64,000 nucleotides of DNA, from contig CM000150.2 in the NCBI GenBank assembly GCA_000004695.1, positions 4,384,001 through 4,448,000 on the forward strand, written 5' to 3'. This document shows, one piece after another, positions 36,069-39,000 of the stretch. The notes below the pieces were generated by a model. That model was not told the DNA's origin. It was given only the letters and a program-made list of their open reading frames with translations, and did not search any database. Position 1 is the first letter of the stretch, and every line of letters starts with the position of its first letter. The DNA is from Dictyostelium discoideum. Its lineage: Eukaryota. Position numbers and translations under genes: made by a program.

Positions 36069-39000
36069 TCAATTTATTTTTATAATATTAAAATAAGTTT
36101 TTATAATTTTAATAACATTATCCCATTCAAATAGTTTTATCTTATTTAATAGTTTTTCAAAATAAAATTGAATTTTTTCAATACCATTATTATTATTATT
36201 ATTATTATTATTATTATTATTATTATTATTATTATTATTATTATTATTATTATTATTATTATTATTATTATTATTATTATTATTATTATTATTATTATTA
36301 TTATTATTATTATTATTATTATTATTATTATTATTATTATTATTGTTATTTATAAAATATTTTAATTGTGATATTACTAAATTAATTAAAATTAAAAATG
36401 AATTTAAACTACCAATCCATTTATAAAATGAATTTTGAATTCTTTTAATTGAATTATTTTGAATTATTACTTTATCATAGAATGAAATACCAAAATTTAA
36501 ATATTCTTGAATTGATTCATTTACAACTTTAATTGATTTTCTAATTAAATTAAATTGATCAATTTCAAATTTATTTGGAAATAAATTAAAATAAATATTT
36601 GATTTTTTATTGATATTATCATTTATAAATTGATCATTAATTTCTTTATTTTCTTCATTTAATTTATTTGTAAATTCAATTATATTTAAATTTAAATTAA
36701 TATTAACATCAATTGGTTTATAAATTCTATCACCAATGTATTCATTTAATAATAATAAATTTTCATTTTCATTTTCATTTTCATTTTCATTTTCATTTTC
36801 ATTTTCATTTTCATTTTCATTTTCATTTTCATTTTCATTTTCATTTTCATTTTCATTTTCATTTTCATCTTTAATTTCATTACATTGATTTAATTGATCA
36901 TTATAAAATTGTAATAATTTATTATTTGAATTAATTAATGTTGATAGCCTTTTAATTGAAATTGATTTAGTATGATAAATTGGTTTATATTCTTTTTCTT
37001 TATTTCCTAATAATTCAATTAATTCTTTATATTTAGCTGTTGTTGTTGTTGATAATTGTTGATGATTATTTTTCATTATTTTAAATGATAAACATAATGA
37101 TAATATTATAATTTGATCAAGAAAATTTAATGGAATTTCTAATGGTTCAATTTCACCATGTGATAATTTATCTCTAATCCTTGGACCATCAATATAAATT
37201 AATAAATCTAATAACATTGATATTAATGATTCACCAATATCAATTACAAGTTGATTATTAAATAAAATTTCTTTTTCTTCTTCTTCTTTTTCTTCTTTTT
37301 CTTCTTCTTTTTCTTCATTATTATTATTATTAAATTTAAAATATTTTGGATTTTCATATTTTGAATAATTTTTATTTGAAGTTGGAATTTGTAAATGTTT
37401 CTCTTCACTGTATGATGATGATGATGATGTAGTTGATGATGGCGATTCATTTGAAAATACACAAGTTGATAATAATAATGTATTTGAAATGAATAAATCC
37501 AAAGTTGTATAAAAACTAATATAATCTGCTTTTAAAAATTTATCAGGTAAATTATTTAATTTAACAAAATTTAATCTAAGTGAATGTTCCAATTGTGGTA
37601 ATAATAATACTAATGAATAAAATATATTATAACCATCATTATCTTCATTATCATTAATTGATTTAAAATAATAATTAAATGCTTCTAACCATAAATTAAT
37701 TCTACCTGGTACTATAAATTTTGAATTTTTTAATATTTCAAAAATTTCATCTTTATAATTTAATAATATTAATTTATTATTATTATTATTATTATTATTA
37801 TTATTATTATTATTATTATTATTATTATTATTATTATTATTATTATTATTATTATTATTATTATTATTATTATTATTATTATTATTTTTATTATTATTAT
37901 TATTATTATCAAAATTTGAAAACTTTTTTTTTAAACTAATTATTGGTCTAATTGAACCATTATTATTATTATTATTATTATTATTATTATTATTATTATT
38001 ATTATTATTATTATTATTATTATTATTATTATTATTATTATTATTATTATTATTATTATTATTATTATTATTATTATTATTATTTTTAAAAGATTTGAAA
38101 ATAATTGAAATTTTAAAAATTAAATGAATAATATAAATTAATAAAGATAAATTTAATTCATTTGGTGATATGAATCCATGCCAAATTATATTACGTAAAT
38201 TTAAACCAATTGGTGGTCCAATTAAAACTTTTAATAATGAAATTATTGGTAATCCTAAAACTATTAATAAATTATCATCATCTAATAAATCACGTAACAT
38301 TCTACCGAAAATTGGTGGTTTTTTATCAACAATAACTAATTTAAAAAAAATTATATCACCCAACATTCTTTCTAATGTTGATAATATTATTGAATATTCT
38401 AATGTAATATTATCATTAAAATTATTTTCATTTATTTTATCTCTTAAAGAAATTAATGTATTTTTAAATAATAATACCTTTATTATTTTTAAAAAATAAA
38501 AAAAAAGAAATATTAATATCAATAATAATATTAATAATAATAAAAAAATAAAAAATAATAAAAAAGAAAAAAAAACTTACATTTGGTATAATATTATTTA
38601 AATTTAAATCATCAAACCATTTATATGATTCATTTAATAATTGTGATTTATTATTATTATCATTAAATTCTTTATAATATTTTAAGAATAATAAATTTGA
38701 TAAAATTCTAAGACGTATTGAGTTTATTTTAAAAAATTCTAGTACATTTTGATGATCATTTTTATCTTTTTCTAAAGTATTATTATTATTATTATTATTA
38801 TTATTATTATTATTATTATTATTATTATTATTATTATTATTATTATTATTATTATTATTATTATTATTATTATTATTATTATTATTATTATTATTATTAT
38901 TATTATTATTATTATTATTATTATTTTCATTTATAGATTTATTAAAAAATAACCAGTTATTTAAAGAATTATTTATTATGTTATCATTTAAATAAAATGA

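Follow-up and report, generated by a model that had tools for sequence, protein, structure and literature searches.

The window, that is the whole 64-kb stretch of Dictyostelium discoideum AX4 DNA analysed here, carries two unrelated genes that share a 49-nt sequence (Table 1). The first, G1, combines Kelch, RING and TPR domains: in Pfam its layout reads TPR (in the upstream exons), Kelch, MYND-type zinc finger, low-complexity linker and RING. Its gene model is unique under the constraints applied, and its length equals that of the annotated product at locus L002, from a second assembly. The second gene, G2, belongs to the ERMARD/DUF4209 family, with a Pfam DUF4209 domain (PF13910) above the gathering threshold (104 bits against a cut-off of 22.3) and full-length similarity to animal ERMARD (E about 1e-28) and to dictyostelid orthologs (E down to 7e-140). 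Between G1 and G2 lie the cbpJ gene and two lectin genes.

Table 1. Features of the window, in order of position
Feature	Position	Strand	Details
Gene G1, ubiquitin-ligase-like, 1154 aa	20424..24096	+	exons 20424-20629, 20745-21069, 21163-24096
Upstream context of the G1 insert	23347..23535	+	(AAT)32, (GAA)22, then AATAAAAATGATTAT (NKNDY)
Recipient 49-mer copy in G1	23536..23584	+	exact match, in frame
Additional 30-nt tandem unit	23585..23614	+	10 residues
Donor-like sequence running into the G1 poly-Asn tract	23615..23649	+	TTATAAATAAT, then (AAT)10
Intact cbpJ, calcium-binding protein J	31136..31868	-	Q55C62
Discoidin-domain/H-lectin gene, proximal copy	32314..33227	-	XP_646620-type, 262 aa
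Decayed 3' fragment of G2	33783..33992	-	begins inside the 49-mer
Decayed 5' fragment of EF-hand gene cbpJ	33993..34250	-	at the duplication junction
Discoidin-domain/H-lectin gene, distal copy	34564..35469	-	XP_646621-type, 262 aa
Gene G2, ERMARD/DUF4209 homolog, 1010 aa	36069..39204	-	exons 39204-38581, 38477-36069
(AAT)53 poly-Asn tract directly 3' of the donor tract	36186..36344	-	pure-repeat mapping; proposed homology anchor
Remaining unique donor tract	36346..36394	-	39 nt (about 36355-36393, 13 residues), then TATAAATAA
Donor 49-mer, ancestral G2 coding sequence	36395..36443	-	exact match and ortholog conservation
TGGATTGGTAG, 11-mer with the highest G+C in the 255 nt leading up to the AAT tract	36409..36419	-	composition; site of three joints

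Extent of the sequence shared by G1 and G2

A sequence-only reading had reported an exact inverted 49-mer in two unrelated genes, in frame in both, and our match search and ORF offsets bear this out. The plus-strand sequence in G1 is the reverse complement of the G2 coordinates, the two copies lying 12.8 kb (about 13 kb) apart on opposite strands. The reading frame is kept in both (offset 0 in ORFs 21355-24096 (+) and 36069-38522 (-)), and the same 16-residue peptide is encoded by each. No exact non-low-complexity repeat in the window is longer than the 49-mer, the discoidin-like tandem genes excepted, and a search there for a third site with up to 3 mismatches found none. The match also goes beyond chance, as that reading had held, none of 100 dinucleotide shuffles giving any match. 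Both copies as well as the 30-nt repeat of G1 are present in an independent assembly, GCA_054883475.1, whose locus L002 is 99.2-100% identical with many indels, and an assembly artefact is therefore ruled out. In favour of convergence on a peptide motif, codons ending in A or T are the strongly preferred class in D. discoideum, every codon of the 49-mer is of this class, such codons make a shared peptide tend to share DNA, and D. purpureum does share 27 nt. However, the peptide is not found in the G1 homologs, and the identity covers Ser, Leu and Gly codons as well as flanking sequence. We thus regard chance similarity, convergence and assembly error as having a negligible probability.

By blastn, the similarity runs beyond 49 nt (G1 23536-23784 against G2 36443-36186, at 90.7%), because TTTATAAATAA and an (AAT)n tract come next in both genes; pairwise alignment and exact-repeat mapping also find TATAAATAA in both. 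In agreement with the sequence-only reading, the 30-nt core is tandemly repeated in G1 between a poly-E and a poly-N tract, (GAA)22 and the AAT tract, respectively, so that the 41-mer 23544-23584 is identical to 23574-23614. Over the resulting 49 + 30 = 79 nt, the G1 copy has 0 mismatches to G2. In comparison to the donor, it shows this 30-nt duplication and a 39-nt deletion bounded by T-runs, both of them multiples of three, and G2 itself carries an 11-nt direct repeat, AAATTCATTTT, at a 30-nt spacing that constitutes a slippage substrate. The 3' junction of the insert falls somewhere within the AAT repeat, and at the 5' junction we saw no clear homology or microhomology. In principle, the TATAAATAA of G1 could instead mark the beginning of a third 30-nt unit fused to the tract of G1 itself, but this would need two extra bases.

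Conservation of the segment and direction of transfer

The 49-mer is located near the C-terminus of G2, and a 12-residue motif within its product occupies the same G2 position in six other dictyostelid species (five genera aligned), with motif-bearing orthologs in P. violaceum, T. lacteum, A. subglobosum and C. fasciculata, and also in D. purpureum DNA. In the G2 genes of L003, L004, L005 and L006, which are divergent members of the D. discoideum complex or D. citrinum, the 49-mer is identical at the nucleotide level although the G2 flanks are only 85-97% identical, and it is stably inherited, with no rearrangement in G2 of any genome examined. Such cross-species nucleotide identity is probably not the mark of a DNA-level element, given that D. 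discoideum-complex genomes agree at 99.2-99.6% over the whole 255-nt C-terminal region of G2 and that the codons end in A or T. Together, these data show that the 49-mer is an ordinary, strongly conserved stretch of ancestral G2 coding sequence, under purifying selection across dictyostelids.

For G1, an exhaustive HMMER search returned only distant homologs, the best at 28% identity. Two of them, P0121 and P0122, share its architecture (TPR-Kelch-MYND-coiled-coil-RING); their MYND and RING domains align to those of G1, the insert corresponds to an alignment gap, and the 49-mer peptide was not found at the G1 position in either. Thus the segment does not behave as a motif ancestral to both gene families, being present in all G2 orthologs and missing from these G1 homologs. 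As to which gene lacks the segment ancestrally, the G2 orthologs carry it, and its absence on the G1 side is seen in the distant homologs P0121 and P0122. Because the motif is conserved in G2 orthologs and falls in a gap in these G1 homologs, we place the direction of transfer from G2 to G1.

These comparisons also bear on the small mobile sequence that the sequence-only reading had put forward, that is a transposable element resident in both genes. Exact identity between unrelated genes and the association with a rearrangement junction (see below) are what such an element could produce, and miniature transposable elements and exon capture indeed yield short identical sequences in unrelated genes. 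But here the sequence corresponds to conserved host coding sequence of G2, missing from P0121 and P0122, and the two ectopic copies known to us (see below) differ in extent. Moreover, we found no terminal inverted repeats, inverted arms or structure at the 49-mer, and no target-site duplication at the G1 insert, whose flanks read GATTAT / insert / AAT-repeat. The 30-nt core had no match in a metagenome collection either, on which ground we also rejected an origin of the 49-mer outside the genome. The proposal of a mobile sequence is thus not supported, and we consider it very improbable.

A second ectopic copy and a model of copying anchored in AAT repeats

The search for copies covered the window and nine related loci of 18-22 kb. 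In one of these, L003 ('D. cf. discoideum'), the G2 segment is present once more at a separate ectopic site, matching donor positions 4-26 at 100% and positions 32-98 at 97%, and interrupted at donor positions 26/32 by a 159-nt element. This copy lies between two (AAT)n tracts, still has the 39 nt that are missing in G1 and lacks the 30-nt duplication. The start points of the two ectopic copies are no more than about 6 nt apart (36443 for AX4 G1, about 36449 for L003). The flanks of the L003 copy match neither AX4 nor G1, and we rejected the idea that it is what is left of the G1 insertion, there being no similarity to G1 and none between the flanks. From these sequences, the L003 copy is independent of the one in AX4 G1.

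We consider it probable that G2 sequence was copied into G1 by repair or replication synthesis primed in the G1 AAT tract on the (AAT)53 of G2. The piece that entered the poly-Asn/poly-Glu linker of G1 in the AX4 lineage would measure about 100 nt and comprise the 49-mer, the 39 nt that follow it, TATAAATAA and some length of AAT repeat. We infer that a break or a stalled fork in the (AAT)n of G1 left a 3' end of ATT repeats and that this end paired by strand invasion with the (AAT)53 tract of G2, whichever repair pathway then took over. Synthesis would have left the repeat and entered unique G2 sequence for about 100 nt; once released, the new strand would have been joined to the other end of G1 on the basis of little homology, if any. 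Sense orientation and frame at the 3' junction would be set because both tracts read AAT = Asn and pair within the repeat; the 5' junction alone would have required luck or selection for frame. Error-prone synthesis or later slippage may account for both the 30-nt duplication between two AAATTCATTTT and the loss of 39 nt between T-runs. What recurs, and best accounts for the copies, is the (AAT)n tract alongside, not the 49-mer itself. Ectopic copying akin to gene conversion, to which the sequence-only reading had pointed, is thus the best explanation, with a conserved donor, G1 homologs that lack the insert and a similarity anchored in a repeat.

In an RNA-mediated alternative, a break in G1 would have taken up a piece of G2 mRNA, or the cDNA that a retroelement reverse transcriptase had made from it. 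Retrotransposon genes do lie nearby in related strains (an integrase in L005, and in L009 a 1903-aa gene with a DSGA protease-like motif), and the copied tract is wholly exonic, hence compatible with such a route. However, the tract spans no intron and hence gives no positive sign of RNA, and the copy stops in an internal AAT repeat rather than at an mRNA 3' end or a poly(A) tail. In addition, AAT on both sides of the L003 copy is directly explained by DNA homology. A route through RNA is therefore improbable.

Copying anchored in AAT repeats has parallels in known systems. In break-induced replication initiated at microsatellites, microhomology-guided template switches to non-allelic sites occur with short duplications and deletions (PMC11161834), and template-switch insertions have been described in other systems as well (PMC8421209, PMC2943611). 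The G1 insert resembles the templated insertions ascribed to SDSA with an ectopic donor, MMBIR/FoSTeS or synthesis-dependent MMEJ: an intact and conserved donor, G2, exists elsewhere and is identical over a short stretch, one junction lies in a shared repeat (TATAAATAA and (AAT)n in both genes at the 3' side), and a short duplication and a deletion are found at small direct repeats. The L003 copy, with AAT at either end, resembles a multi-switch product. In contrast to those insertions, the G1 event is fixed, germline-equivalent, in a haploid amoeba and in frame in a coding gene, the homology is a codon repeat (AAT = Asn) of unrelated genes, and the pathway and enzymes are putative. With the terms we used, a literature search found no description of such copying in Dictyostelium. 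Interlocus gene conversion offers a second parallel, with non-reciprocal copying and an unchanged donor on the same chromosome at about 13 kb. However, classical gene conversion depends on homology at either side and puts one homologous sequence in place of another, whereas here the genes are unrelated, the homology is a simple repeat on one side (on both in L003) and the outcome is an insertion.

Poly-asparagine codon repeats are very abundant in D. discoideum genes, which contain thousands of codon repeats. As a tentative extension, and one we hold to be possible rather than likely, poly-Asn codon repeats may act as dispersed, portable homology: a broken AAT tract would be repaired on that of another gene, dragging in neighbouring coding sequence, with the ERMARD-like segment as a recurrent donor (two lineages) and joints favouring the rare G-containing patches of A/T-rich DNA. 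If true, peptide segments would be shuffled between unrelated proteins by repeats, in frame and in sense. If the copying model for G1 is right, the locus offers a clean natural templated insertion that moved a peptide-coding fragment in frame from one gene to an unrelated one, and in which the donor and the recipient can be seen, as can a plausible anchor of homology. Codon repeats that routinely misdirect repair would be mutational substrates for new protein segments and for structural variation, not passive filler. If the copying model is wrong, what is left is one odd patch in a low-complexity linker.

The tandem duplication and the question of a hotspot

The window also contains a tandem segmental duplication with head-to-tail units of about 2.4-2.6 kb (32231-33899 against 34484-36182 at 89.7%; 31643-31982 against 34023-34351; 31357-31403 against 33993-34039). 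The duplicated genes themselves are the discoidin-domain/H-lectin genes, the EF-hand sequence being a junction fragment only. We rejected their assignment to the classic discoidin I cluster, for which instability has been published, as they are other discoidin-domain/H-lectin paralogs on a 4.92-Mb contig. At the junction, the decayed 3' fragment of G2 (33783-~33992) abuts the decayed 5' fragment of cbpJ. The proximal breakpoint lies in cbpJ near 31350, reading AAATTAATTGGAGTTGCAGTT. On the G2 side, donor positions 36-90 align to 33975-33922 at 91%, and the G2-derived sequence ends between G2 coordinates 36408 and 36420, fragment indels preventing placement at the base level. A breakpoint of this ~2.5-kb duplication inside the 49-mer, as claimed in the sequence-only reading, thus held on re-alignment. 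Both G2 and cbpJ read ATTGG(N)AGTT at the presumed joint. With its head-to-tail units and abutting truncated fragments, the structure is like a tandem segmental duplication with a chimeric microhomology junction, and its only oddity in comparison to an ordinary one is that the distal breakpoint falls in the tract later copied into G1.

The duplication is a separate and much older event than the copying into G1, because its junction fragments are decayed (75-91% identity to their parents) and shared by diverged strains, whereas the G1 copy has no difference from its donor in 79 nt. These fragments are common to AX4, L005 and L007 with derived changes, and those of the cbpJ fragment are shared with L005. 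The identity of the 49-mer dates the copying only weakly, since the donor does not vary between species. The single difference next to the repeat is AAC in AX4 G2 and AAT in G1 and in the G2 of other strains, which hints either that the G1 copy is not brand new or that this site belongs to G1's own tract.

In a rival reading, fragility or recombinogenic activity would be specific to the sequence of the 49-mer or of its TGGATTGGTAG core. Breaks or polymerase dissociation would be favoured there and would have given rise to the old duplication, the ectopic copies and the L003 interruption, possibly in concert with the AAT tracts. First, three joints fall at 36408-36420: the one between G2 and cbpJ at the duplication, and the two ends of the 159-nt L003 element. 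Second, the two independent ectopic copies start at nearly the same point. Third, TGGATTGGTAG is the most G+C-rich 11-mer and the only G-rich patch nearby, and a rough post-hoc estimate puts the chance of the joints co-locating at about 0.005. But the events are few and were assembled after the fact, and the joints lie in decayed A/T-rich DNA where they are not placeable to the base. The 49-mer has been inherited in G2 without rearrangement in all genomes examined, and the tandem duplication is an ancient event inherited by diverged strains. No unusual single-strand structure was found (z = -1.0; 29 of 200 shuffles fold equally well), and a hairpin or cruciform at the 49-mer was rejected on the same score. 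Furthermore, clustering is also expected from short synthesis out of the AAT tract together with G-containing microhomology annealing best in 13% G+C DNA. We consider a fragile site rather unlikely, the evidence on the rearrangement hotspot proposed in the sequence-only reading pointing both ways.

Close relatives have between 1 and 4 copies of the duplicated unit, with its lectin genes. The neighbourhood as a whole changes quickly between them, with retroelement insertions and a synteny break beside Hsp70.

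The 49-nt sequence shared by two genes of opposite strand

As the sequence-only reading had claimed, one 49-nt sequence (the 49-mer) lies in frame in two genes on opposite strands, the TPR-Kelch-MYND-RING gene (G1, ubiquitin-ligase-like) and the ERMARD/DUF4209-like gene (G2), and encodes the same 16-residue peptide in both. The match is exact at both sites, with no further match of up to 3 mismatches in the window (19.3% G+C) and none in 100 shuffles; lectin tandem genes aside, it is the longest normal-complexity exact repeat of the window. The tandem 30-nt core proposed for G1 was likewise found, as one extra unit, the G1 insert being flanked by (GAA)22 and an AAT tract. 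An assembly artefact is ruled out, since both copies and the 30-nt repeat are present in L002 (GCA_054883475.1), an independent assembly 99.2-100% identical to AX4 with 20 gaps over 16.9 kb. Our finding goes further than that reading, with a longer shared tract, a clear donor and a second, independent copy.

Positions of the features in the window, or in the locus named
Feature	Position	Strand	Remarks
Hsp70 ORF	26087-28006	-	letter-for-letter D. discoideum AX4 heat shock cognate 70 kDa protein 1 (P36415 / XP_646617.1)
G1	20424-20629, 20745-21069, 21163-24096	+	1154 aa, the length of the annotated product in the second assembly; sole gene model satisfying the constraints used
G2	39204-38581, 38477-36069	-	1010 aa; DUF4209 domain, 104 bits vs cut-off 22.3; dictyostelid homolog of animal ERMARD
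Genes between G1 and G2			Hsp70, WD40 gene, EF-hand gene cbpJ (Q55C62), two discoidin-domain/H-lectin genes (XP_646620, XP_646621)
49-mer in G1	23536-23584	+
49-mer in G2	36395-36443	-
Extra 30-nt unit in G1	23585-23614	+
Hexanucleotide array within G2	36759-36870		perfect (GAAAAT)n, coding for (Glu-Asn)n
Self-complementary stretch	4400-4547		~148 nt, 79.7% match to own reverse complement
Repeat upstream of G1	19943-20148 vs 24027-24208		89.9% and 94% identity
AX4 lectin coding regions	32314-33227, 34564-35469
cbpJ pseudogene fragment	33993-34250		vs 31357-31982
159-nt element	L003 17430-17588 and 17996-18151		two copies 98.7% identical, 560 nt apart
1903-aa gene model	L009 12051-18398		= L007 1-6135

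The G1/G2 similarity extends past the 49 nt. In coding sense, the 49-mer of G2 is followed by 39 nt (13 residues), TATAAATAA(C) and (AAT)53, and that of G1 by the second 30-nt unit, T-TATAAATAA(T), (AAT)10 and further Asn codons; on the 5' side there is weak similarity at most (G1 AATAAAAATGATTAT vs G2 AATAATTCAATTAAA). Both the 30-nt duplication and the 39-nt deletion of the G1 copy keep the frame. T-runs bound the deletion, and AAATTCATTTT, present twice in the donor at a spacing of 30 nt, is the expected substrate for the duplication. At 36346, the base after TATAAATAA, the G2 codon after TTTATAAATAA is AAC in AX4 and L002; the G1 copy has AAT there, as does G2 of three divergent relatives (L003, L005, L006). 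AAC is a lineage-specific change of synonymous class (Asn) that could help to date the transfer: either the copy is older than the C substitution, or the base is part of G1's own repeat.

In the G2 alignment, orthologs of Polysphondylium violaceum, Tieghemostelium lacteum, Acytostelium subglobosum and Cavenderia fasciculata have, at the corresponding position, K-R/T-x-Q/K-N-S-F/L-Y-K-W-I/W/Y-G. The D. purpureum gene model ends early, and the DNA downstream codes for the corresponding 16-residue peptide, with 27 consecutive nt in common with the 49-mer, and then for a short Asn-rich stretch. The 49-mer is thus conserved G2 coding sequence across dictyostelids, and the small mobile sequence suggested earlier was rejected as its identity. 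It is nucleotide-identical in G2 of divergent 'D. discoideum' (L005, L006), 'D. cf. discoideum' (L003) and D. citrinum (L004). This invariance is not peculiar to the 49-mer: within the D. discoideum complex, identity is 99.2-99.6% over all of the last 255 nt of G2 before the repeat, and the codons are A/T-ending (CAA AAT TCA TTT TAT AAA TGG ATT GGT), a class strongly preferred in D. discoideum, so that protein constraint and codon bias together are enough to explain it.

The upstream exons of G1 encode TPR repeats; its other parts are Kelch repeats, a MYND-type zinc finger, a long linker of low complexity and, at the C-terminus, a RING. It is fast-evolving, its best homologs in an exhaustive HMMER scan being 28-31% identical. 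Two of them, P0121 (dictyostelid, EukProt) and P0122, share its architecture; their MYND and RING domains line up with those of G1, and in place of the AX4 insert the alignment has a gap, their coiled coil being uninterrupted there. Because the motif is kept in G2 orthologs and the insert is missing from these homologs, distant as they are, we take G2 to be the donor and G1 the recipient. Separately, the final ~70 coding nt of G1 and its 3' UTR recur, frameshifted, directly upstream of the gene, apparently as the relic of a tandem G1 duplicate. Four divergent relatives, L003, L005, L006 and L007, all lose their similarity to the window at one point, ~25957 (127 nt past the Hsp70 stop codon on its 3' side), beyond which lie G1 in AX4/L002 and unrelated sequence in these four loci (an integrase gene in L005). 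Either G1 adjoins Hsp70 in the AX4 lineage only, or the other genomes have a common insertion.

Proposed copying anchored on AAT repeats

AAT is on the coding strand of both genes, G1 on the plus and G2 on the minus strand. From this arrangement we infer a route of break, pairing and repair. If G1's AAT tract broke at its upstream edge, resection would leave an antisense 3' tail of (ATT)n, for which the (AAT)53 on the coding strand of G2 would be a pairing partner. Extension would copy TATAAATAA, then the 39 nt and then the 49-mer, which is the observed stretch, and the new strand, once released and end-joined to the other G1 end, would complete the insertion. The 30-nt duplication and 39-nt deletion could have arisen by slippage in the newly made strand, or later. 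At the 3' junction, codon-repeat pairing would set sense and reading frame, which would account for the in-frame transfer seen in both genes.

Microsatellite-induced break-induced replication yields homology-guided non-allelic template switches with short duplications and deletions (PMC11161834), the same event spectrum as that inferred for the G1 copy; other templated-insertion pathways have been published too (PMC8421209, PMC2943611). We found no literature report of such copying in Dictyostelium. The G1 insert adds a case to the known class of templated ectopic insertions, and a possible generalisation to codon repeats would be of interest.

Recurrence beside AAT tracts is a prediction of this repeat-anchored model. 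Exact look-up of the lectin and cbpJ proteins encoded nearby led us to a set of related assemblies, from which we retrieved orthologous loci of 18-22 kb each. L003 (GCA_054859205.1) has another copy of the donor tract (the 98 nt of G2, 36443-36346, before the repeat), ~1.7 kb past Hsp70 on the strand opposite to G2. Donor positions 4-26 match 17611-17589 at 100% and 32-98 match 17429-17363 at 97%; the translation reads ...NNNK-SIQNSFYK, a break and 24 further residues. With (AAT)n at both flanks, this copy retains the 39 nt missing in G1 and is without the 30-nt duplication. A 159-nt element, which holds T11, G5 and A33 runs and TTGCAACCACCCGG, splits it after donor position 26, the match resuming at 32. 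Since flanks and element alike are without a match in the AX4 window and in the other loci, and nothing nearby resembles G1 coding sequence, the L003 copy is an event separate from the G1 insertion. No further ectopic copy was found within the 18-22 kb examined of L004-L009.

The tandem duplication and the clustering of joints

The breakpoint of the ~2.5 kb tandem duplication had been placed inside the 49-mer, correctly: its unit extends from a point within cbpJ (about 31350) to one within G2 (36408-36420). A decayed cbpJ 5' fragment therefore meets a decayed G2 3' fragment at the junction (33966-33992). The parents at the inferred joint, cbpJ AAATTAATTGGAGTTGCAGTT and G2 AAATGGATTGGTAGTTTAAATT, have ATTGG(N)AGTT in common, which suggests a microhomology-mediated join, its base-level placement blurred by indels in the fragments. 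The cbpJ fragment recurs in L005, where it shares the derived changes and has since lost ~380 nt by deletion, both junction fragments are present in L007/L009, and the AX4 units are 75-90% identical in non-coding parts and lectin flanks; by these comparisons the duplication is an old event. It is tied to the 49-mer copying by place, not time.

Three joints fall in 36408-36420: one is the junction of the duplication, and the other two are the edges of the element splitting the L003 copy. The G1 and L003 copies start ~6 nt or less apart. This clustering, with a chance of co-location of ~0.005 by a crude, post-hoc estimate, could point to a sequence-specific fragile site, a rival reading that we consider unlikely. 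No unusual single-strand structure was found for the region. TGGATTGGTAG (36419-36409) is the highest-G+C 11-mer of the 255 nt (13% G+C) before the repeat. We prefer a reading in which the AAT tract supplies break site and homology, and joints then settle at the nearest G-containing patch that anneals stably.

The two AX4 lectin coding regions have two amino-acid differences and exact runs up to 161 nt; this near-identity, set against 75-90% in their flanks, suggests concerted evolution and indicates ongoing homogenisation. There is a single lectin gene in L003 and in L006, and D. citrinum has four with different junctions; across close relatives the number is 1, 2, 3 or 4. The cbpJ pseudogene fragment is without the parental 31404-31642 (intron and region between two EF-hand loops), probably through deletion between two similar EF-hand-coding stretches. 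Between the lectin copies of L009 (GCA_054859235.1, 'D. cf. discoideum') lies a 1903-aa gene model with a DSGA aspartic-protease-like motif, which looks like an LTR-retrotransposon polyprotein.
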